A stretch of 9,420 nucleotides of DNA, taken from a virus (Duplodnaviria; Heunggongvirae; Uroviricota; Caudoviricetes). Position numbers and translations under genes: made by a program. The notes under the pieces were generated by a model, which searched no databases, had not been told where the DNA came from, and saw only the letters and a program-made list of their open reading frames with translations. Where the stretch lies: the IMG/VR virus record IMGVR_UViG_2695420763_000021, positions 1-9,420 of that record; one strand, 5' to 3'. Positions within the stretch are counted from its first letter, which is position 1; each line of letters opens with the position of its first letter. This document shows positions 1 through 9,420 of this stretch, piece by piece.

Positions 1-1167
1 ATGAATAGAATCTATCGCGTGATATGGAATTGCACTCTACAGGTATTTCAGGCCTGCTCGGAATTAACTCGCAGGGCAGGTAAAACATCGACGGTTAATT
101 TGCGTAAATCCTCTGGACTGACAACGAAATTCAGTAGATTGACGCTGGGTGTTTTGCTGGCACTAAGCGGTTCAGCGTCTGGTGCAAGTCTGGAAGTTGA
201 TAATGATCAGATTACCAATATTGATACTGATGTTGCTTATGATGCCTACCTGGTTGGCTGGTATGGCACTGGAGTGCTTAATATTTTGGCTGGCGGTAAT
301 GCCTCCTTAACCACTATTACTACCAGCGTCATTGGCGCTAATGAGGACTCAGAGGGCACCGTTAATGTTTTGGGTGGCACCTGGCGATTGTATGATAGCG
401 GAAATAATGCAAGGCCTTTAAATGTGGGTCAATCCGGAACGGGGACGCTGAATATTAAACAGAAAGGTCACGTTGATGGAGGCTATTTAAGACTAGGTTC
501 CTCGACAGGAGGCGTCGGGACGGTCAATGTTGAGGGAGAGGACTCTGTTCTGACGACCGAATTATTCGAAATAGGGAGTTACGGTACGGGCTCATTAAAT
601 ATTACGGATAAGGGTTACGTCACGAGTTCAATAGTCGCCATTTTAGGCTATCAGGCGGGCAGTAATGGCCAGGTTGTCGTTGAAAAGGGCGGTGAGTGGC
701 TAATAAAAAATAACGATTCCTCAATTGAATTTCAAATTGGTAATCAAGGAACGGGGGAAGCGACTATTCGCGAGGGTGGACTGATTACGGCTGAAAACAC
801 GATTATCGGTGGCAATGCTACCGGTATCGGAACCCTGAATGTGCAGGATCAAGACTCTGTCATCACGGTACGCAGACTCTATAATGGATATTTCGGTAAT
901 GGCACACTCAATATTTCCAATAATGGACTAATTAATAACAAAGAATATTCATTAGTGGGCGTTCAGGACGGTTCCCACGGTGTCGTCAACGTGACCGATA
1001 AAGGGCATTGGAATTTCCTCGGAACGGGCGAAGCTTTCCGCTATATCTATATCGGTGATGCTGGCGACGGTGAACTTAATGTCTCGCGTGAAGGTAAAGT
1101 AGATTCGGGAATTATCACTGCGGGGATGAAAGAAACAGGCACAGGCAACATTACTGTTAAGGATAAG
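1..1167 (+). pseudogene. Autotransporter (type Va) adhesin, 5' fragment: extended signal peptide plus passenger-domain repeats, 3'-truncated by IS2
   Basis: ATG at 1. N-terminus MNRIYRVIWN...SELTRRAGK has the extended-signal-peptide pattern of enterobacterial autotransporters, followed by hydrophobic LTLGVLLALSGSASG and repeated GTGxLNI / GNGTLNI / GIGTLNV passenger motifs. The native frame ends at codon 389 (1165-1167) and then reads 28 codons into IS2 before the stop at 1252-1254. No beta-barrel translocator domain is present. Confidence 0.8.
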
Positions 1168-1208
1168 TGGATTTGCCCCTATATTTCCAGACATCTGTTA
1201 TCACTTAA
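1168..1208. repeat. IS2 right terminal inverted repeat (IRR)
   Basis: Imperfect inverted repeat partner of 2457-2498; begins TGGATTTGCCCC. Confidence 0.8.
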
Positions 1209-2084
1209 CCCATTACAAGCCCACTGCCGCAGATATTCCCGTGGCGAGCGATAACCCAGCGCACTATGCGGATGCCATTCGTTATAATGCTCGAACGCCT
1301 CTGCAAGGTTCTTTGCTGCCGTTAACCCGTCTGGTTTGGGCATGATACTGATGTAGTCACGCTTTATCGTTTTCACGAAGCTCTCTGCTATTCCGTTACT
1401 CTCCGGACTCCGCACCGCCGTGTTCTTCGGTTCAAGTCCCAACATCCGGGCGAACTGGCGTGTTTCATTAGCCCGGTAGCATGAACCATTATCCGTCAGC
1501 CACTCCACTGGAGACGACGGAAGATCGTTGCCGAAGCGGCGTTCCACCGCTCCCAGCATGACGTCCTGTACTGTTTCACTGTTGAAGCCGCCGGTAGTCA
1601 CCGCCCAGTGCAGTGCCTCACGATCACAGCAGTCCAGCGCGAACGTGACACGCAGTCTCTCTCCGTTATCACAGCAGAACTCGAACCCGTCAGAGCACCA
1701 TCGCTGATTGCTTTCTTTCACGGCCACTCTGCCTGTATGTGCCCGTTTCGATGGCGGTACAGTAGGTTTTCGCTCAAGCAACAGCGCATTCTGGCGCATG
1801 ATCCGGTAAACACGTTTGGCATTGATCGCAGGCATACCATCAAGTTCTGCCTGTCTGCGAAGCAGCGCCCATACCCGACGATAACCATACGTGGGCAGCT
1901 CTCCGATAACATGGTGTATACGGAGAAGCACATCCGTATCATCAGTGTGACGACTGCGGCGGCCATCCATCCAGTCATCGGTTCGTCTGAGAATGACGTA
2001 CAACTGCGCACGCGACACCCGGAGACAACGGCTGACTAAGCTTACTCCCCATCCCCGGGCAATAAGGGCGCGTGCGCTATCCAC
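1179..2084 (-). CDS. insD: IS2 transposase OrfB (InsD), DDE integrase-like catalytic domain
   Basis: 301-aa ORF inside IS2. The translation (e.g. ...[18 protein letters not shown]...[11 protein letters not shown]...[18 protein letters not shown]) matches IS2 InsD as recalled. Its 5' end overlaps orfA in the -1 frame. Confidence 0.9.
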
Positions 2085-2407
2085 TTTTTTGCCCGTCCAT
2101 ATTCAACGGCTTCTTTGAGGAGTTCATTTTCCATCGTTTTCTTGCCGAGCAGGCGCTGGAGTTCTTTAATCTGCTTCATGGCGGCAGCAAGTTCAGAGGC
2201 AGGAACAACCTGTTCTCCGGCGGCGACAGCAGTAAGACTTCCTTCCTGGTATTGCTTACGCCAGAGAAATAACTGGCTGGCTGCTACACCATGTTGCCGG
2301 GCAACGAGGGAGACCGTCATCCCCGGTTCAAAGCTCTGCTGAACAATTGCGATCTTTTCCTGTGTGGTACGCCGTCTGCGTTTCTCCGGCCCTAAGACAT
2401 CAATCAT
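2042..2407 (-). CDS. insC: IS2 transposase OrfA (InsC), HTH DNA-binding subunit
   Basis: Start placed at the internal ATG 2407..2405 ([24 protein letters not shown]...), giving 121 aa. The track ORF extends upstream to 2452 but that reads through the IRL-proximal sequence. Confidence 0.88.
2084..2090 (-). other. A6G slippery heptamer for programmed -1 ribosomal frameshift (OrfA to OrfAB fusion transposase)
   Basis: Minus strand reads AAAAAAG at 2090..2084, inside the orfA/orfB overlap and at the 5' end of the orfB frame. IS3-family elements, including IS2, use this motif. Confidence 0.6.
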
Positions 2408-2456
2408 CTGTTCTCCAATGACTAGTCTAAAAACTAGTATTAAGACTATCACTTAT

Positions 2457-2498
2457 TTAAGTGATACTGGTTGTCTGGAGATTCAGGGGGCCAGTCTA
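2457..2498. repeat. IS2 left terminal inverted repeat (IRL)
   Basis: Ends ...GGGGGCCAGTCTA at 2498; partner of 1168-1208. Confidence 0.8.
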
Positions 2499-2696
2499 AG
2501 ATTCCCCGAAACGCTTCTCCATAAATAATTCATAGGCTGCTCGTTCATCCGATACTGCTGCCAGTGATGCCTGTGCAATTTTTAATGCGGTAAGCATGTT
2601 GTTTTGATCTTCATCGAGTCCGAACGGTATTTCATCCCGTGCTGACTCAATGCTGGTAATCGTGTTCTGTAACCATTCTTTGGTAAGAGTATTCAT
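2496..2696 (-). pseudogene. Hypothetical phage early protein, probably 3'-truncated by IS2 (66 codons remain)
   Basis: ATG 2696..2694 with AAGGTGA about 9 nt upstream. The frame runs straight into IS2, and its stop codon TAG (2498..2496) is the terminal 3 nt of the IS2 IRL. The N-terminal 45 aa are paralogous to the 155-aa ORF at 2892-3359. Confidence 0.5.
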
Positions 2697-2698
2697 AA

Positions 2699-2890
2699 CT
2701 ATTTCACCTTAATCTCAACATTTCGCAGCTTTAGCTCTACTGGCAAGTCTGACTTTCCTGTTAATGCTAATGCGAGATTTTCAGGAGTAATGAGAGCAGT
2801 TATTGTTTTCCCCATCGCCAGACGAATAATCATTCGTATCTCGCGATCGTCACATGCTCCCGGTCGAACAATTGATATTTGTCCGTTCAT
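2699..2890 (-). CDS. Hypothetical small phage protein (63 aa; alternative start at 2911 gives 70 aa)
   Basis: ATG 2890..2888 is preceded by AAGGAGA at about 6 nt spacing and sits 1 nt after the stop of the upstream ORF. The stop at 2701..2699 is followed 2 nt later by the next ATG. Confidence 0.5.
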   Translation of the reverse strand: MNGQISIVRPGACDDREIRMIIRLAMGKTITALITPENLALALTGKSDLPVELKLRNVEIKVK

Positions 2891-2891
2891 C

Positions 2892-3359
2892 TCACTCTCC
2901 TTTGATGCCAATGTTTACAGCCTGACAAGCCTCTTTGAGCACCCAGTCAACAGCGTCTTTCCATGCTCCGGTTTCGACTGGCGGATTTTCACTCTTAACC
3001 TGTTCATAGAAGCGCACCGCTTTAATCAATCCTTCGGGTGTCAGTGGCACAGGCTGGGCCGTGAATAACGCCTGAATTTCATAGTTCGGCCTGTCGTTGC
3101 AATCCTCTTTTGTCGGTACATATTTCCAGTCACCAACCCACGGCTTCTCCTGAAAGTTCGTAACGCCTTTTCTCACGTAGCGATATCGCCATGTCACCGG
3201 TTCGGCTTCCAGCGATGCCAGCGCGACTTTAAATGCGGTAAGTACGTTTTTAACCACATCGATTTTGAATACTATTTCATCACATACAAACGATTTATCG
3301 TCTACTACCGTTTCAATTCCGGTAATCGTGTTTTGTAGCCATTTGGTTAATTCAGCCAT
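2892..3359 (-). CDS. Hypothetical phage early protein (155 aa) with an N-terminal module shared with ORF 2496-2696
   Basis: 155-aa ORF. N-terminus MAELTKWLQNTITGIE...ASLEA aligns with MNTLTKEWLQNTITSIE...ASLAA of the 66-aa ORF, and the DNA is also about 80 percent similar over roughly 150 bp. The C-terminal part is Trp-rich and unique. Confidence 0.65.
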   Translation of the reverse strand: MAELTKWLQNTITGIETVVDDKSFVCDEIVFKIDVVKNVLTAFKVALASLEAEPVTWRYRYVRKGVTNFQEKPWVGDWKYVPTKEDCNDRPNYEIQALFTAQPVPLTPEGLIKAVRFYEQVKSENPPVETGAWKDAVDWVLKEACQAVNIGIKGE

Positions 3360-3490
3360 TTTTCATTACCGCCCTTTCGGGCGGTCTCCTGATGTTCTGA
3401 GAGTGCAGGAATCCCTCCGGTTAAGGATTTAATAAAATTCACTTCTGATTTAAATTTTTCAGTGTTTTGTTGTCAGGTGGTTTATCGCCT

Positions 3491-3802
3491 TTATGCTTCA
3501 ACCTTATTTCTCAGCCATACACAAACCGGACCATCTTCAGTGTCATGAATGGAACCAATGAACCAGCCTTCACCTTCCGGGCGCTCCGGTTTCCAGGAGG
3601 CAATATCGGGACCATCTGCGTCCAGATTAAAATCATCTTCATCCATAGTTCTGATGGTCCATTGAAGATTATTTCCCTCCATCCATGCGTTAAACTCTTC
3701 CGTTGAAATATGTTCTCTACCATCACAGAATTTTTCATATTCAGGATGCGTCCAGCAGCCATATTCATCACGTACTACTGGTATTTCTTTAATTTCATTC
3801 AT
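3491..3802 (-). CDS. Hypothetical phage protein (103 aa), acidic, Trp-rich
   Basis: ATG 3802..3800 with GGGAGA about 7 nt upstream. Overlaps the upstream ORF's stop by 8 nt. The translation looks protein-like (MNEIKEIPVVRDEYGCWTHPEYEKF...). Confidence 0.65.
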   Translation of the reverse strand: MNEIKEIPVVRDEYGCWTHPEYEKFCDGREHISTEEFNAWMEGNNLQWTIRTMDEDDFNLDADGPDIASWKPERPEGEGWFIGSIHDTEDGPVCVWLRNKVEA

Positions 3803-4049
3803 TTCTGTTCTCCCACGTTTTCAGACTTTCACCACAGAACGGACAAAATGAAACCCGCACTGGTGATTTAGAAAATTCACCGGAACGCAACATCACCAAA
3901 TCAGGGCCGCGAGTTAAACTCTCATTCCAGATTTTGTATATCAGCAGACCTTTTCGCGCCGTGTATTCAGCATCATGCTCAAGGGATTTTGCCAGTGCTG
4001 CACATGGTTCTATCTTATTGCCATTAATTTGGCATTTTGACTCACTCAC
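3795..4049 (-). CDS. Hypothetical small protein (84 aa) with a C-terminal CPFCG motif
   Basis: GTG start 4049..4047 is preceded by a strong AAGGAGG at 6 nt spacing and overlaps the upstream stop as GTGA. The track's longer 96-aa version also begins at a GTG (4085..4083) but lacks an RBS. Cys at positions 6, 16, 68 and 71 of the 84-aa product. Confidence 0.55.
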   Translation of the reverse strand: MSESKCQINGNKIEPCAALAKSLEHDAEYTARKGLLIYKIWNESLTRGPDLVMLRSGEFSKSPVRVSFCPFCGESLKTWENRNE

Positions 4050-4285
4050 TGGTTGCCTCCTTTGCGGATCTGCGCTGCGATGCACGAAAAAAAAGACTCT
4101 CGCGTATGACTGTTAAGAGCTGGCGCGAACGCCGCGTTAAGAACGGCAGCATCACAGCCGTCATCGATATAGAGCGCAATTTTTTTCTCTAGGCGTGCTT
4201 TAGCTTCCTGCAACTGCATACCCCGGCACGCACGCGGGATATACTCAGCAATTTGAGCGATAGATTTTTCGTTCTGTTTAAACAT
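4046..4285 (-). CDS. Hypothetical small protein (79 aa)
   Basis: ATG 4285..4283 with GAGGTGA 5 nt upstream. Overlaps the upstream ORF by 8 nt (ATGTTTAA). Confidence 0.55.
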   Translation of the reverse strand: MFKQNEKSIAQIAEYIPRACRGMQLQEAKARLEKKIALYIDDGCDAAVLNAAFAPALNSHTRESFFSCIAAQIRKGGNQ

Positions 4286-4481
4286 GCTTCACCTCGATAG
4301 GCTTGATGGTATCGATCAGCAGTCGGCGGCGAGTATTTTCTGCAAAGTGGCGGCGTCCGGTTTCTTTGTGGTAAAACTCGTTTTTTCCGACGACCCACAT
4401 CCGCTTTGTCTGGTGCAGTTTTTTTACCTGCGGACCGTCTCGGGTGATAACAATTCCCGTATGAGTTTTTATCACGCTCAT
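4278..4481 (-). CDS. Hypothetical small basic protein (67 aa), in the position occupied by yfdT in CPS-53
   Basis: ATG 4481..4479 overlaps the yfdS-like stop as ATGA. Basic composition. Confidence 0.5.
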   Translation of the reverse strand: MSVIKTHTGIVITRDGPQVKKLHQTKRMWVVGKNEFYHKETGRRHFAENTRRRLLIDTIKPIEVKHV

Positions 4482-4840
4482 TTCTTATTCTCCGGTGCTT
4501 TTGGCATTACTGCCCAGTGAGTGATATTGACGTTTTCAAGGTCCCCGACCTGAAATGTCCACTGCCATTCTCCGGTTTCTTTTTGTCCCCAGGTGTACCA
4601 GAGAGAACGCCAGCCAATCAGCCAGCCTTCTCCGTTAGCATCAAATAACAGAACACTTTCATTTGCTGGCGGCAGTTCAGCTGACACTGGCATTATTTTG
4701 TTTTCCAGTGCCGCACATTTAGCTTCAAGCGCATCGAATTTACGTACCAGGTACTCAGCATTTGTTTCATTCACTTTCAGATCTCGCGGTACACATTTCC
4801 CGCGAAGAAACCCTTCCATTTCGAAAACATTCATGCGCAT
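4478..4840 (-). CDS. yfdS: YfdS-like phage protein (120 aa)
   Basis: 120-aa ORF immediately downstream of, and overlapping, the HD-domain gene. Its size and position match CPS-53 yfdS as recalled. An in-frame ATG two codons in (4834) overlaps the upstream stop as ATGA. Confidence 0.55.
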   Translation of the reverse strand: MRMNVFEMEGFLRGKCVPRDLKVNETNAEYLVRKFDALEAKCAALENKIMPVSAELPPANESVLLFDANGEGWLIGWRSLWYTWGQKETGEWQWTFQVGDLENVNITHWAVMPKAPENKK

Positions 4841-5367
4841 TTGCGTAACTCCGATAACTCGTTAAAACGTTCCATAAACATCCCGTAGGCATGGCCTGGT
4901 GACAGTGGAATAACTTTGAACATCTCTGTTGCCGGGATGCCTTCCAGTACAGGCCAGAAAGAGCCATCATCAAGCCCGAGATCGCGGCGTTCGGTTGCCA
5001 GCATAATGAGATCGGCATATTTCACTGGCGTGCTCATAACAGGAGGTAACCCGTATTTCTCACGGATTACGGCGTCTATTTTTTCTTCCATCCGTTTATA
5101 GTCAGGAAGAAGTCGTTTCAGTGGCGCGGGGATGTCCTGGCAATATGCTTCTGTTGCATCATGCATTAACGCTTCAAAAGCAAATTCCTGCGGCACCAGC
5201 TGGCTGCAAAGCACCGCATGCTGGGCGACACTGTAGAAGTGTGAAAGATGTCCTGCAAAGCGACAGATATTTGAAAGGGAAACTGCGATATCGTTAATCA
5301 CGATGTCGTCTTTATTTATCTTGTCATAATAAAAATGCTTCCCGGAAAAAGTTTTAATAAATGACAT
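4831..5367 (-). CDS. yfdR: HD-domain phosphohydrolase, YfbR/YfdR-like 5'-deoxynucleotidase family (178 aa)
   Basis: Start at ATG 5367..5365 with GGAG in GTGGAGAACGAA upstream; the track ORF begins 4 codons earlier at a GTG. Motifs H-x27-HD and DIPAPLK (SVAQHAVLCSQL...ALMHDATEAYCQDIPAPLK) are typical of HD-domain 5'-deoxynucleotidases. At 178 aa it matches CPS-53 YfdR in size and gene order. Confidence 0.75.
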   Translation of the reverse strand: MSFIKTFSGKHFYYDKINKDDIVINDIAVSLSNICRFAGHLSHFYSVAQHAVLCSQLVPQEFAFEALMHDATEAYCQDIPAPLKRLLPDYKRMEEKIDAVIREKYGLPPVMSTPVKYADLIMLATERRDLGLDDGSFWPVLEGIPATEMFKVIPLSPGHAYGMFMERFNELSELRKCA

Positions 5368-5461
5368 TTCGTTCTCCACTTTATATGCGCTGCACCGCGC
5401 TGAATTCTGCTAAAAGGAAGCTCTCACCATCCGGTGATTATTGAGTTAATTACGTTTCCAT

Positions 5462-5483
5462 AAATGCCCCCGCAGGGGCATTT
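5462..5483 (-). terminator. Perfect 9-bp stem / 4-nt loop hairpin 12 nt downstream of the yfdQ-like stop; possible partial intrinsic terminator or attenuator
   Basis: AAATGCCCC-CGCA-GGGGCATTT. On the minus-strand RNA the stem ends in UUU followed by AUGGAAA, so the U-tract is short. Confidence 0.4.
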
Positions 5484-5495
5484 GCAGTAATGAAA

Positions 5496-6320
5496 TCAGG
5501 CGGTGAAAGTACCAATAAAGGTTTCTACTTTGCTGTCTTTGAATTTCTCAACAAGCAGATCACGAAATTCGTTAGCCATTTCTTCCTGCATCGCTTCCAG
5601 CTGAATAATGCGCAGAACCAGTACAGGACGATCGCCAGTGATAATGCTGAGGCGTAATTTAAACGGACGTTCTTTCAGGCCTTCAAACGGAACGCATTTA
5701 AATTCAAATGCCACTGGCATAATGTCTTTGGTTTTCGCTTCGACAGACTCCATCAGGGAGCGTTTGCCGCTGAAGTCATTGTCTTCAAAATCAGCGGTCT
5801 GGTTTGCTTCAATTGTGATTTTACGGACTGCAGCAGCCGCTTTGGTTGCCTGAATGGTGTCACCATTAGCATCAAAGCCCACAAGGTAGTCGGCCCAGTC
5901 TTCAATCCATTCTGCCAGTGACTTCTGGGAGTTACGCTCGCCATTAACAGACAACAGAGCAGAAAACGGTGCTGTCTTTTTCAGTTTGAGGGTGGCGGTG
6001 TTATCTGCGTGACCTGGTTCATCAATAGTACCCAGGTTAAGCACACTGACGGCTCGCATATTATCGGCATCGATAAAGCAGCGGGTGCCTTCATCTGCAA
6101 GATCTTTAGAATAACGGGTAAAGTCATCGATGCTGGCAGTGGAAAGCGCACCACGGAAACGGAAGCGATTTAAATTAAATTTTTCCAGATCATGAATGCG
6201 GAAATTCTCAGGCAATGCCACAGCATCGGCACCAATCTTACTGATAATTTCATTAACACCCTGAGCAGAAATAAGGGCATGGATTTGATTAATTGCGGTT
6301 GCGTCTAAGTTCTGAGACAT
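5496..6320 (-). CDS. yfdQ: YfdQ-like phage protein (DUF2303-type, 274 aa)
   Basis: 274-aa ORF with ATG 6320..6318 and GAGGA 7 nt upstream. Its size and position (between the yfdP-like and HD-domain genes) match CPS-53 yfdQ as recalled. Confidence 0.65.
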
Positions 6321-6385
6321 AATAAGTCCTCACTATATAAAGATATTCAGTGATGAGATAAATAATCAGTTAATTAAGAACGATA

Positions 6386-6748
6386 TTAATGACCTGCTGC
6401 GCGGAGTTTTCCGTCAGGTTCACCGGCAAGAGTCAGTAATTGTCCCTGGTCTTCCTGCAGAATAGTCAGGCGACCACCGCGATTGACATACATCGGCGTT
6501 TCGGTGGTGTCTTCTTCGGAAATTTTCCCGCGGTTAGTCGGGCGAACATATGAGAGTTTGTGTTTTATTTTCACACGGTTCTCATCAAACGGTTCGATTT
6601 CCAGGTTGAGCGAGACCTTACCTTTGGTTTTCGTGTTCATCACACCGGAAGCGACTTCACTGAGAACTGCGCCGATTTTGGTTTCAAATACGCCGCCGTC
6701 CAGCTCCCCGATAAATGCCTGCACATCAGTACTGCGTTCGCTAGCCAT
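6386..6748 (-). CDS. yfdP: YfdP-like phage protein (121 aa), first gene of the pL operon
   Basis: Start chosen at ATG 6748..6746 (MASERSTDVQAF...) because AGGAG lies 7 nt upstream. The track's 182-aa version starts at an upstream GTG, and the extra N-terminal 62 codons are Cys/Arg/Pro-rich and look non-coding. Confidence 0.55.
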   Translation of the reverse strand: MASERSTDVQAFIGELDGGVFETKIGAVLSEVASGVMNTKTKGKVSLNLEIEPFDENRVKIKHKLSYVRPTNRGKISEEDTTETPMYVNRGGRLTILQEDQGQLLTLAGEPDGKLRAAGH

Positions 6749-6796
6749 TTTGCTGCTCCTCATCATATCGACCCTGCAAGGTCGGTTAGTTTCTCC

Positions 6797-6895
6797 ACAA
6801 AACAGAGAAGAACACCTGCGGTGGCAGCCGCCCGGATGGATTGGGTTATGAGCCCGTCGTCCGGTGATGCTCTTCTCTGTTTTGTAAAAAGAGCG
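6797..6895 (-). promoter_or_regulatory. Structured element in the pL leader: boxA-like CGCTCTTTTTA followed directly by a 15-bp perfect inverted repeat with a 59-nt loop
   Basis: Minus strand reads CGCTCTTTTTA at 6895..6885. Stem arms are 6871-6885 (TCTTCTCTGTTTTGT) and 6797-6811 (ACAAAACAGAGAAGA), exact reverse complements. A second 10-bp inverted repeat (6893-6902 / 6922-6931) lies just upstream. Confidence 0.35.
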
Positions 6896-7089
6896 GTACC
6901 AGCCGGAAGCAAGTGTACAAACTGGTACCGCCAAAGCAGTGGCTGTTGTGGTGACCGGTGCTGATCTCCGGCTTGCGGTTATTTCAGACTCTCACGGGCG
7001 TTTAATTGCCCCGCCGAACAGCTCTTTTCCGCAATAGCTGCAATGTCTTTCGCGCATCAGCCTGCGCATTCACCACAACTCTAAAAACA

Positions 7090-7119
7090 AATGTAGGATA
7101 TCCAACATGTAAGTGTCAA
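7090..7119 (-). promoter_or_regulatory. pL-like early-left promoter (-35 TTGACA 7119..7114, 18-nt spacer, -10 TACATT 7095..7090)
   Basis: Minus strand reads TTGACActtacatgttggatatccTACATT, nearly identical to the pR module at 7894-7923. The -10 is embedded in operator OL-a. Confidence 0.6.
7091..7108. promoter_or_regulatory. Repressor operator OL-a (18-bp palindrome ATGTAGGATATCCAACAT)
   Basis: Exact reverse complement of OR-c (7905-7922). Half-site consensus ATGTWGGAT. Overlaps the pL -10. Confidence 0.65.
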
Positions 7120-7125
7120 GAGTTT

Positions 7126-7143
7126 ATGTTGGTTATCCTACAT
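7126..7143. promoter_or_regulatory. Repressor operator OL-b (ATGTTGGTTATCCTACAT)
   Basis: 17 of 18 matches to the operator consensus; lies just upstream of the pL -35. Confidence 0.6.
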
Positions 7144-7160
7144 AAAAAGATAGGCTCATA

Positions 7161-7185
7161 AAAAAACCGGGGATACCCCGGTTTT
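7161..7185 (-). terminator. Rho-independent terminator downstream of the repressor gene (bidirectional hairpin)
   Basis: AAAAAA-CCGGGG-ATA-CCCCGG-TTTT. On the minus strand a GC stem is followed by UUUUUU, 20 nt after the repressor stop and before OL/pL. Confidence 0.7.
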
Positions 7186-7205
7186 GCGATAGTGAGGAAG
7201 ATGTG

Positions 7206-7859
7206 TCAAAAATCCATTATTACTTGTTTGACAAGACCAACTATTCTGCAGTTTTCACCGCATTCAATAGTTTTATAGTTAGGATTTAGTGGGACGAGAT
7301 ACCTGTTCGGCCAGTCCTCAACAAATTTTTTGAGTGTCGCTTCTTGCCCACCATTGATATGGGCAACAACGATTTTTCCGTTAATACACTCTGTATCAAT
7401 AATATCTGGCTCTACGATAACGATAGAACCTTCTGGTATCGATGGTGAGCCGAGGGGATTGGTCATTGAATCACCACGGACCCGTAGTGCAAATGCCATT
7501 TCTGATACAAGGGCGGTAGTATAAACCCACTCTTCAGCATCTTCTTTCCTGACACCAGGCTCCGTCATTGTCCATGAACCCGCCTGAACCCACGAGATGA
7601 GGGGGACTTTTTTAACTGCGAATATTTCAGGTTTTAGATTTATCTTTGGTTCAGGCGAGCCTTTTCCGCTAACAAGCCACAGAGGATCGCATTTAAGTGC
7701 GTTGGCTAGGGCTTGAAGGTTGGCTCCATTTGGTTGGTAGTCGTCCTTTTCCCATCCAGTAACCGTGACACGGTTCACACCAGTCAAATCAGCCAGTGCT
7801 TGTTGTGTCAGGTTCAGTTCTTTTCGCCTTTGGCGAATACGATCACTCATGTTCATCAT
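7206..7859 (-). CDS. CI-type prophage repressor: N-terminal HTH (XRE family) plus C-terminal S24 LexA-like autopeptidase
   Basis: 217 aa. HTH segment LTQQALADLTGVNRVTVTGWE. Ala-Gly cleavage-site context VQAG (as in lambda CI). Catalytic Ser in RVRGDSM and Lys in ATLKKF. The start ATG lies within operator OR-a, so the transcript is leaderless or nearly so, as for lambda pRM. Confidence 0.85.
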   Translation of the reverse strand: MMNMSDRIRQRRKELNLTQQALADLTGVNRVTVTGWEKDDYQPNGANLQALANALKCDPLWLVSGKGSPEPKINLKPEIFAVKKVPLISWVQAGSWTMTEPGVRKEDAEEWVYTTALVSEMAFALRVRGDSMTNPLGSPSIPEGSIVIVEPDIIDTECINGKIVVAHINGGQEATLKKFVEDWPNRYLVPLNPNYKTIECGENCRIVGLVKQVIMDF

Positions 7860-7875
7860 GTAGGCAATCCTACCA
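7858..7875. promoter_or_regulatory. Repressor operator OR-a (ATGTAGGCAATCCTACCA), overlapping the repressor start codon
   Basis: 15 of 18 matches to the palindromic consensus. Confidence 0.5.
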
Positions 7876-7882
7876 CATGCTC

Positions 7883-7900
7883 ATGTAGGATTCTTGACAT
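7883..7900. promoter_or_regulatory. Repressor operator OR-b (ATGTAGGATTCTTGACAT), overlapping the pR -35
   Basis: Perfect left half-site ATGTAGGAT; the right half is degenerate and contains TTGACA. Confidence 0.5.
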
Positions 7901-7923
7901 TGGCATGTTGGATATCCTACATT
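7894..7923 (+). promoter_or_regulatory. pR-like early-right promoter (-35 TTGACA 7894-7899, 18-nt spacer, -10 TACATT 7918-7923)
   Basis: Consensus -35, 18-bp spacer, 4 of 6 match in the -10. Lies about 30 nt upstream of the cro-like gene, whose RBS is GGGAGA at 7944-7949. Confidence 0.6.
7905..7922. promoter_or_regulatory. Repressor operator OR-c (ATGTTGGATATCCTACAT), overlapping the pR -10
   Basis: Perfect 18-bp palindrome-type site; reverse complement of OL-a. Confidence 0.65.
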
Positions 7924-7954
7924 TCTGCTTAACGTAATTTAACGGGAGACAGAA

Positions 7955-8152
7955 ATGCGGAAATCCGACGTGATTAATTATTTCGGCGGAGTTTGTAAAA
8001 CCGCCGAAGCCCTAGGTATTAAGCATCCGTCTGTTTCAGAGTGGCCTGAGATTATTCCTGAAGGCCGAGCGTACCAGTTAGAAAAAATTACTAACGGGAA
8101 ACTGAAAGTTGACGTGTCTTTATATCAAAAGACTAACAGTGCTGCGGCATAA
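7955..8152 (+). CDS. Cro-like HTH regulator (65 aa)
   Basis: First gene after pR and divergent from the repressor. INYFGG...KTAEALGIKHPSVSEW resembles lambda Cro ([25 protein letters not shown]). Confidence 0.75.
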   Translation: MRKSDVINYFGGVCKTAEALGIKHPSVSEWPEIIPEGRAYQLEKITNGKLKVDVSLYQKTNSAAA

Positions 8153-8179
8153 AAACACCACAGAAATGAGGAATTAACC

Positions 8180-8764
8180 GTGGGTAAAGAACCTGAATGG
8201 AAAGTTGATAAACAACCAGCATGGCTGGTGGCAGCAATACGAAGAACGATTGCTGATTTACCTCATGGCTATGAGGAAGCAGCAGAAATTCTTGGTTTGT
8301 ATAAATCTGATGATATCACCCCAGCAAAAGATCAATTGCATAACAGACTGCGTAGCGGTGGGGATCAAATTTTTCCACTTGAGTGGGCCATGGTTTTACA
8401 GGATGCCAGTGGTACCAGGCATGTAACAGATGCAATAGCCCGTCGTAGTAATGGGGTGTTTGTGCCGCTGGTGGTCATTGATGACATTGACAATGGTGAC
8501 ATTAATCAGCGGCTGATGGAGTCAATAGAATGGATTGGCAAGCATTCCCAGTACTTACGCAAGGCAACTGCTGATGGAGTTATTGACCAGGCTGAGCGTG
8601 AGCAAATCGAAGAGAACAGCTACCAAGTAATGGCGAAGTGGCAGGAGCATTTAACACTGTTATTTCGTGTTTTTTGTGCGCCGGAAAAGAGTAACGCCCG
8701 CGAGTGTGCAGCTCCGGGCGTCGTGGCGTCGATTGCTTCTGGTTGTGGAGAAACTAACGCATGA
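8180..8764 (+). CDS. CII-like phage regulatory protein (194 aa; possibly the phage CII/CP76-type family)
   Basis: GTG start 8180 with GAGGA 7 nt upstream. It sits directly after cro as cII does in lambdoid phages. The family assignment is from memory of CP76-type CII proteins, not a verified alignment. Confidence 0.5.
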
Positions 8765-9099
8765 ACAGTTTAACAACACACTACCGTCGCTCGCAACTGA
8801 TTGCGCTTCCTGTACCGGGTGGAAAAGCGAAGGTGGAGTATTGCTATGCAGTGAATGTACCAGGTGACAGGGAAATTGTAACCCACAGATTTGCAGAGTG
8901 GGCTGTGGGTGATTTCAACCGGCAGAAGGAGACAGTCCTTTGCAACAAGTTAACCGCTGGTTCAAAGATCACTACGGAGTGCCCGTCAGAGTCATTCGTT
9001 GGGAACCGGAAACACAACGGGTTATCTACCTCCGCGAAGGCTATGAGCATGAGTGCTTCAGTCCGCTCGAACAGTTTCGTCGTAAATTCAGGGAAATAG
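8761..9099 (+). CDS. Hypothetical protein (112 aa as called); the C-terminal half looks out of frame, so a frameshift is possible
   Basis: ATG 8761 overlaps the cII-like stop as ATGA. The first 55 to 60 residues look protein-like. The remainder ([53 protein letters not shown]) is Ser-rich and low-complexity, while the -1 frame over the same DNA reads as a well-formed peptide. Confidence 0.4.
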
Positions 9100-9119
9100 A
9101 GGTCGGTCATGAGCACTAA
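8940..9119 (+). CDS. Candidate small protein (59 aa) in the alternative frame, TTG start
   Basis: AAGGAGA at 8926-8932 lies 7 nt before TTG 8940. The translation (M)[58 protein letters not shown] is protein-like. Its stop TAA 9117-9119 overlaps the downstream ATG at 9109. Confidence 0.3.
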
Positions 9120-9420
9120 ATTAACCGGCTATGTATGGGATGGTTGCGCAGCGTCAGGCATGAAATTATCCAGCGTGGCAATTATGGCCCGCCTGGCTGA
9201 TTTCAGTAATGACGAAGGTGTGTGCTGGCCATCAATTGAAACCATTGCCCGCCAGATTGGCGCGGGGATGAGTACCGTCAGAACGGCTATCGCACGGCTG
9301 GAAGCAGAAGGCTGGTTAACGCGTAAGGCGCGTCGCCATGGCAACCGCAATGCGTCGAATGTTTATCAGCTTAACGTTGCGAAGCTTCAGGCAGCGGCAT
9401 TTTCTCAACTGTCAGATTCT
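9109..9420 (+). CDS. Phage replication-initiation protein (O-like, N-terminal HTH DNA-binding domain), 5' partial; continues beyond the window
   Basis: ATG 9109 with GAGG 8 nt upstream; the frame is open to the end of the window (104 codons). [73 protein letters not shown] is typical of the HTH replication-protein N-domain found after cII in lambdoid prophages. Confidence 0.65.
   Translation, partial: MSTKLTGYVWDGCAASGMKLSSVAIMARLADFSNDEGVCWPSIETIARQIGAGMSTVRTAIARLEAEGWLTRKARRHGNRNASNVYQLNVAKLQAAAFSQLSDS

Follow-up and report, generated by a model that had tools for sequence, protein, structure and literature searches.

Lambda Ea22 and P22 EaD (PF13935) are early, non-essential accessory proteins of lambdoid phages in which a conserved helical N-terminal part is followed by mosaic C-termini. 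Lambda Ea22 depends on its N-terminal and coiled-coil part both for activity and for being a tetramer, and one variant of its mosaic C-terminal domains is DUF551 (Goddard et al., 2024, PMC10834534). Two minus-strand genes, 2696..2496 and 3359..2892, of the 9,420-nucleotide stretch of DNA analyzed here (Caudoviricetes record IMGVR_UViG_2695420763_000021, positions 1 to 9,420; the whole stretch is called the window below) resemble them as presumably early, non-essential accessory genes with related, predicted helical N-terminal leaders and different C-termini. The likeness is partial: Ea22 has an N-terminal region of ca. 100 amino acids (aa) plus a coiled coil, whereas the window leaders are predicted helical hairpins of 47–53 aa, and the pro-lysogenic phenotype and the tetramer that have been reported are those of Ea22. 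We are highly confident that the two open reading frames (ORFs) are paralogous members of a mosaic “Ea” accessory group of lambdoid/P22-like Enterobacterales phages, taken here to include proteins annotated as EaA, as ead/Ea22-like, or as DUF550- or DUF551-containing, and that their leaders have the cassette architecture described below.

The link with Ea22 runs through the downstream parts of these proteins. Three PF13935 proteins (P0034, P0086, and P0102) match the product of 3359..2892 (the long protein) over ca. 75–83% of its length, i.e., its C-terminal part; in P0034 a leader ending in ALASLEAE directly precedes the tryptophan (Trp)-rich domain, and P0086 has the variant ASLNAD at this place. 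The true Ea22-like neighbor of a leader gene in another locus (L005) matches PF13935 with E=2e-21, whereas the window ORFs have no match. The EaA proteins of P22-like phages (ST64T Eaa1, phage L EaA-1, and BTP1 EaA) possess a leader that is 53–60% identical to the short-type leader of the window over all 47 residues. EaA differs in its pyrophosphohydrolase domain (PF04447, DUF550), which is absent from both window ORFs and present in L005:4001-4645; an Escherichia coli example of the EaA type combines the leader with both DUF550 and DUF551. YfdS of the cryptic prophage CPS-53 has DUF551 in common with the intact form of the truncated window gene, whereas its N-terminal module is a different one. 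We know of no activity for DUF551 itself.

Two genes with a shared leader

Both ORFs were confirmed at the above coordinates; 2696..2496 encodes 66 aa and 3359..2892 encodes 155 aa. A BLASTP comparison of the two products reveals 27 identical residues out of 53 (E=1e-10); the similarity does not extend beyond residues 1-47 of the short protein and residues 1-52 of the long one. An hmmsearch profile of the leader, built from independent representatives, matches both ORFs from the initiator Met (E=4e-29 and E=2e-20 for the short and the long ORF, respectively) and detects no third leader copy in the window. The central claim of the initial annotation, i.e., that the two genes share an N-terminal module and have different C-termini, is therefore confirmed by both methods. 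The module, which was put at about 45 aa, measures 47 aa in the short type (2556..2696, minus strand; codons 1-47 of the truncated gene, MNTLTKEWLQNTITSIESARDEIPFGLDEDQNNMLTALKIAQASLAA, a predicted helix-loop-helix) and 53 aa in the long type (3201..3359, minus strand; codons 1-53 of the 155-aa gene, ending in ALASLEAE), the long copy having a 6-residue (6-codon) insertion in the loop and one residue fewer near the start. The leader consensus reads WLQxxIxxIE...RDEIPFGLDED...IALASLEA, with helix 2 ending in the joint IALASLEA(E); the long-type leader of the window has DDKSF in place of DEIPF.

At the DNA level the two leaders are less similar than the ca. 80% given initially: the measured identity is 69% (95/138 positions over 46 aligned codons), with 73% for the codons of the helices and 58% for those of the loop, and for 9 of the 27 identical residues the codons differ. 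This degree of divergence, together with the different codons used for identical residues, shows that there was no recent local duplication, and the two window copies are old paralogs.

Neither ORF matches a Pfam family at E<=0.01, and the leader itself is covered by no Pfam or NCBIfam model; the NCBIfam search returned no matches. PHROGs 660, 3323, 60, and 5117 contain the leader and none of them has an assigned function. The long ORF matches PHROG 660 with E=4e-48 (residues 1-154 versus profile positions 3-143 of 193), and the short ORF matches it by its leader only (E=1e-6). Beyond its leader, the long protein consists of a Trp-rich part (PVTWRYRYV...QALFTAQP, followed by two helices), which together with the stop codon occupies 2892..3200 (minus strand) and belongs to PHROGs 660 and 26213. 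This domain had been regarded as unique, but the long protein has 1637 database matches at E<=1e-3; of the 120 listed, most align over ca. 72% of its length, corresponding to the C-terminal part. The Trp-rich part is nearly invariant across these 120 homologs, which carry many different leaders.

The truncated gene and its intact alleles

The shorter gene is cut by a copy of IS2 of 1331 bp (1168..2498, minus strand) with termini TGGATTTGCCCC and TAGACTGGCCCCC and transposase ORFs at 2452..2042 and 2084..1179, annotated as IS2 in matching E. coli records. In line with the initial annotation, the TAG stop codon of the short ORF (2498-2496) consists of the first three bases of the IS2 end TAGACTGGCCCCC. 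As read from the sequence, the interval 2496..2555 (minus strand) holds the first 19 codons of a helical middle domain (VSDERAAYELFMEKRFGES) followed by the stop supplied by IS2. Intact alleles continue past the truncation with ...GESVDRRRAKNGDREYMAWDMALGWIIWCHRA... and end in DUF551.

The gene is uninterrupted in prophages that match the window at 99–99.9% identity from the IS2 joint onward. The closest intact allele (L001:4472-5203) matches the window at 99.9% identity as far as the IS2 joint, shares its “KIAQASLAA” variant, and continues with GTAGATCGCCGTAGG beyond the point that matches the joint. It encodes 244 aa, comprising the leader, the helical middle domain (VSDERAAYELFMEKRFGESVDRRRAKNGDREYMAWDMALGWIIWCHRA), a linker, and DUF551 at residues 174-241 (E=1.2e-21), and the short ORF of the window represents the 5' 65 codons of this gene. 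A sister allele (L003:3304-4203; also protein-database P0280) contains a 55-aa insertion and encodes 299 aa. The search for an intact version in related phages, which had been recommended, thus recovers the C-terminal region that was initially listed as unknown, namely the helical middle domain plus DUF551. The 66-aa product of the window has no Pfam DUF551 (PF04448) match because IS2 has removed the domain.

In RefSeq the continuous ORFs of 299 aa (L003) and 244 aa (L001) are split into a partial “pseudogene” and a separate coding sequence or a second partial one. It appears that the mosaic architecture confuses model-based annotation in these cases.

The IS2 copy links the prophage DNA with a 5' fragment of an ESPR-type autotransporter gene (window 1-1167). 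Its 5-bp flanks differ (ATAAG versus AGATT), so that there is no matching 5-bp target duplication, and neither of the two IS2 junctions was found in 5426 complete E. coli genomes. The differing flanks and the absence of the junctions from these genomes indicate that IS2 marks a rearrangement rather than a simple insertion, which points to an inversion or deletion mediated by IS2 and particular to the source strain, perhaps a Shigella or an E. coli whose genome is unfinished.

Leaders as exchangeable cassettes

The N-termini of the homologs of the long protein belong to many unrelated types, 35–107 aa in length; nearly all start with M-T/S-x-I/L-T-K/R-E, and all end in ...IALASLEAE (the ASLNAD of P0086 being a variant). 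Clustering of the leaders from 240 proteins of the two downstream families gave ten groups. In hhalign comparisons with the leader, significance is reached only via the ends, and trimming 7 N-terminal and 12 C-terminal residues removes all similarity. The leader is one of at least ten non-homologous cores that have a start of ca. 7 residues and a joint of ca. 12 residues in common, and both halves of these proteins are exchangeable. Leader types A (short), B (long), C, D, and F each occur on both the Trp-rich and the middle-domain/DUF551 family; the window pairs B with the Trp-rich domain and A with DUF551, and the reciprocal pairings exist elsewhere. The idea of a shared N-terminal adaptor with swappable C-terminal domains is therefore correct as far as the C-terminal parts are concerned, but the leader is not the fixed element, since at least ten cores stand before the same two families.

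A recombination joint can be located by comparison with phage mEp460_4F5. Its identity with the window is 99.8% from position 3500 down to 2888, is lost across the small gene and the short-type leader, and resumes at window position 2581, exactly at the IAQASLAA/IALASLEA codons; its allele combines the same middle domain and DUF551 with a leader of type F. Classical lambdoid mosaic evolution likewise involves abrupt changes in identity at a conserved joint and a combinatorial pairing of leaders with downstream domains. It differs from the situation in the window, where the joints lie inside genes, between small domains, and are conserved as protein and not as DNA.

Distribution of the leader

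A search with a five-sequence leader profile against 1.84 billion cluster representatives (50% identity clusters) yielded 843 matches at E<=1e-3, 561 of these at E<=1e-10, almost all located at residues 1-52 of proteins of 52–364 aa. Since the representatives were clustered at 50% identity, many different sequences must occur behind one conserved leader, and inspection revealed that the similarity stops directly after ...ALASLEAE(PVAW). Partner domains, motifs, and tails were counted in 147 representatives (P0133-P0279). Pfam detects DUF551 in 21 of these, the pyrophosphohydrolase domain in 6, Lar in 1, and EGF_alliinase in 1 (E=6e-4), and at least 119 have no Pfam match. The leader stays ca. 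45–85% identical across the 147 clusters with otherwise unrelated sequence. The one Lar match is to the Pfam restriction-alleviation family of that name.

The leader heads EaA (DUF550) of the P22-like phages ST64T, L, BTP1, and Emek, ead/Ea22-like proteins of HK140 and ST64B, gp44/45 of N15, and proteins of Erwinia and Klebsiella phages. Leader DNA was found in 584 of 5426 complete E. coli genomes (ca. 11%), in genes annotated as DUF551, dATP/dGTP pyrophosphohydrolase, or hypothetical. Its contexts comprise the P22-type ea region, as in the window, the lambda exo-xis region right after an Ea22-like gene (L005), and the nin region of an EDL933 prophage (L004). The search in other prophages thus shows a modular spread across enterobacterial phages and prophages with many C-terminal parts, and the similarity is by no means confined to this genome. 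A pattern-based scan of genome contigs gave four loci only, and the taxonomic range rests mainly on the matches in annotated phages and E. coli genomes. Twenty other loci carry two copies of the leader, all of them in the window's own prophage lineage, and consequently they offer no independent evidence on why the two subtypes coexist.

In a few proteins (P0146, P0169, P0225, and P0247) the leader is located at residues 41-90 or ca. 71-122, behind a cysteine-rich segment, which may reflect a gene fusion or a read-through gene call joining the upstream gene. Short linkers also recur beyond the leader: EPVxW/Y/F in 76, an LYTAP-like motif in 58, CRAAML in 63, and a PxQEV-like tail in 51 of the 147 representatives. 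This suggests that the whole family is assembled from small modules with conserved joints between them. Single-linkage clustering of the tails was uninformative, with the shared short linkers and shuffled sub-domains chaining almost everything together.

Selection and predicted structure

Among 26 unique DNA versions of the short-type leader, diversity at third codon positions (pi3) exceeds that at positions 1+2 (pi12) throughout. The difference between the two peaks in loop codons 21-30 (0.225 versus 0.023). The leader is under protein-level purifying selection, which is strongest in the acidic loop D-E-I-P-F-G-L-D-E-D, and D[DE]IPF is present in 128 of the 147 representatives. The joint codons 39-47 have a pi3 of 0.37 and no special DNA-level conservation; with such variable third positions the joint is conserved as protein and not as DNA. 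In the first ten codons, and only there, all positions are conserved to the same degree (pi3 0.14 versus pi12 0.135), which fits an overlap with translation-initiation signals.

AlphaFold2 predicts helices at residues 2-19 and 27-51 in the leader of the long protein, with a predicted local distance difference test score (pLDDT) of 65–81 per 10-residue block that is lowest in the loop. The rest of the protein is modeled as three strands followed by two helices with low confidence (mean pLDDT of the whole protein, 62). The 155-aa model has no significant Foldseek match in BFVD or PDB, and a profile search of PDB sequences gave no match.

Genomic setting

The window is part of an E. coli-type lambdoid/P22-like prophage with a LexA-like cI repressor gene (7859..7206, minus strand) and a cro-like gene. 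A leftward operon comprises yfdQ-like (DUF2303), yfdR-like (HD 5'-deoxynucleotidase), and yfdS/EaE-like (DUF551) genes and then small ORFs; the YfdS/EaE-like gene with its C-terminal DUF551 is situated at 4478-4840 (minus strand). The two leader ORFs form the distal end of this operon, 663 bp apart and with one 63-aa gene between them. Their description as early genes is consistent with this position, on the same strand and leftward of the cI-like repressor and downstream of the yfdQ/yfdR-like genes, and is an assignment from position only.

The intervening 63-aa gene (2699..2890, minus strand) belongs to PHROG 1222 (E=1e-40) and is annotated as a 192-nucleotide coding sequence in near-identical prophages. 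Its last codons (AAGGTGAAATAG; window 2697-2712) form, as read from the sequence, the ribosome-binding site that precedes the ATG of the truncated gene. Likewise, the Shine-Dalgarno sequence of the gene that follows (GGAGGTGAAGTGATG; L001:4455-4500) lies within the codons for ...PEPPQEVK*, the conserved C-terminal end of DUF551 proteins. Since both the DUF551 tail and the end of the 63-aa gene double as ribosome-binding sites, some of the “conserved protein termini” in this operon are translation-coupling signals.

A GC-rich hairpin with a perfect 7-bp stem and a GAAA loop (ACCGCCC GAAA GGGCGGT) is located at 3368..3385 (minus strand) and ends 8 nucleotides before the ATG of the long gene. The intergenic region that contains it has a fold z-score of -2.6. 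In the fetched loci the same hairpin stands upstream of all 21 module genes of the long type and of 17 of the 85 of the short type, and its sole sequence variant keeps the pairing only by means of wobble pairs. The hairpin at 3368..3385 has no T-run and matches no Rfam family; it does not fit the consensus of a terminator and was rejected as such.

The yfdQ-yfdR-yfdS-yfdT-like cluster spans window positions 4278-6320 (minus strand). In E. coli K-12, YfdR has been reported to bind DnaA, and overexpression of the yfdQ-yfdR-yfdS-yfdT cluster inhibits the initiation of replication (PMC4776307). By analogy, the operon with the yfd-like cluster may modulate host replication.

Function of the leader and alternative explanations

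Our best explanation combines membership of the Ea group and a cassette-like leader with a role of the leader in self-association or docking, and to this combination as a whole we assign a probability of roughly 0.55. The folded leader would hold or position the exchangeable C-terminal domains, like the N-terminal and coiled-coil part of tetrameric lambda Ea22, and the conserved start and joint would be the places where co-infecting phages and resident prophages reassort the two halves while frame and fold are kept. The self-association or docking role is proposed because of the analogy with lambda Ea22 and is, taken separately, a tentative suggestion that we would not favor at even odds. Several points weigh against the combined explanation. 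The available model is that of a monomer; AlphaFold2 models the leader with no more than moderate confidence and the remainder of the long protein poorly, and the intact 299-aa allele yielded no usable model (mean pLDDT 34.5, shallow alignment). The invariant flexible acidic loop suits a partner-binding motif better than a plain oligomerization domain. Neither window ORF reaches the Pfam Ead_Ea22 model, and the link with Ea22 consists of the shared joint and C-terminal domain and not of leader homology. Finally, the mosaic breakpoint at the joint rests on one phage pair plus the combinatorial table, and the 26 DNA versions used for the selection analysis are phylogenetically related.

The strong constraint on the loop (diversity at positions 1+2 of 0.023; D[DE]IPF in 128 of 147 representatives) and its lower-confidence, probably flexible conformation raise the question whether the leader could instead be a docking adaptor, the acidic D-E-I-P-F-G-L-D-E-D loop binding one common host or phage hub and delivering dNTP (deoxynucleoside triphosphate) pyrophosphohydrolase, DUF551, and other domains, for example, to the replication or recombination machinery. 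The upstream contexts differ and include no constant neighboring gene, which would point to a host rather than a phage partner, and the neighbors act on replication or defence (YfdR binds DnaA, PMC4776307; Oad2 inhibits OLD). The loop also resembles the C-terminal hexapeptide DDDIPF of SSB, which recruits many genome-maintenance proteins (PMC5872125). However, the window's own long-type leader has DDKSF instead of DEIPF, and at least nine alternative leaders without the loop head the same downstream domains, which must then be independent of it; we consider such an adaptor unlikely. Binding to the SSB C-terminus uses its free C-terminal carboxylate, whereas the motif is internal in the leader, and the resemblance to SSB, which was spotted after the fact, serves as no more than a lead. 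A docking tag whose internal loop mimics the SSB tail DDDIPF and by which temperate phages place a large set of small interchangeable domains, a dNTP pyrophosphohydrolase and DUF551 among them, on SSB clients of the host replication and recombination machinery, the alternative leaders being tags for other hubs, would be a very improbable variant.

It might also be argued that start and joint are kept merely as homology patches and translation signals for cassette exchange, and that the leader has no common protein function. That the alternative leaders have only their ends in common, that the mosaic breakpoint falls at the joint, that the first 10 codons have equally low diversity at all positions (pi3 0.14 versus pi12 0.135), and that gene ends in this operon double as ribosome-binding sites of the next gene would all be expected from such a DNA-level linker. 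Yet synonymous diversity in the leader is far above non-synonymous diversity, the joint codons vary at third positions (pi3 0.37), the two window copies encode 9 of 27 identical residues differently, and the leader keeps ca. 45–85% identity across 147 clusters whose remainder is unrelated, so that an explanation at the DNA level only seems distinctly improbable. A recent local duplication in the prophage, or chance similarity of two short ORFs, would agree with the location of the genes 663 bp apart on the same strand. Chance is hard to reconcile with E=1e-10, and duplication with 69% nucleotide identity, synonymous differences, and a 6-codon indel; both subtypes, moreover, occur independently on other downstream domains in hundreds of genomes of several genera. 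These distribution data rule out both, and we rejected them.

A possible link with anti-defence

The initial annotation had likened the combination of a shared N-terminal part and variable C-termini to phage accessory and anti-defence families. Oad2 (HK446 gp27; L090:5509-6036), which is reported to inhibit the OLD defence nuclease, is related to P22 EaE (bioRxiv 10.64898/2026.07.10.737580) and provides an anti-defence role with experimental support for one protein of this accessory region. Its first 40 aa are 73% identical to those of the EaE-like protein of the window (E=2e-20), the C-termini are unrelated, and the gene resides in the same type of operon. With the EaE-like/Oad2 pair, this operon thus offers another, independent example of a common N-terminal module that is followed by unrelated C-termini. 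Oad2 has no sequence similarity to either leader ORF and belongs to a different leader family. By analogy, it supports the occurrence of anti-defence genes in such regions, and of shared N-terminal modules with variable tails, and it says nothing direct about the two ORFs studied here. PADLOC gave no matches, and the two ORFs have no solved relative or fold match either; of the proposed anti-defence pattern only the parallel with Oad2 stands.

Conclusion

The leader is a populous, hitherto unnamed piece of the already known mosaic Ea22/EaD/EaA/DUF551 group; its novelty is modest and it introduces no new mechanism. It is becoming apparent that lambdoid and P22-like prophages store anti-defence and host-takeover genes in their early accessory regions, and most of the proteins encoded there lack domain annotation. 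In this setting a sharply bounded leader of ca. 50 aa, present in at least 843 clusters and ca. 11% of complete E. coli genomes, provides a handle for harvesting and sorting the attached domains, the functional payoff of which depends on experiments. The cassette rule, i.e., a conserved start, an exchangeable core, a conserved joint, and an exchangeable tail, explains why annotation pipelines split or mislabel these genes and why the family becomes fragmented in whole-protein clustering.

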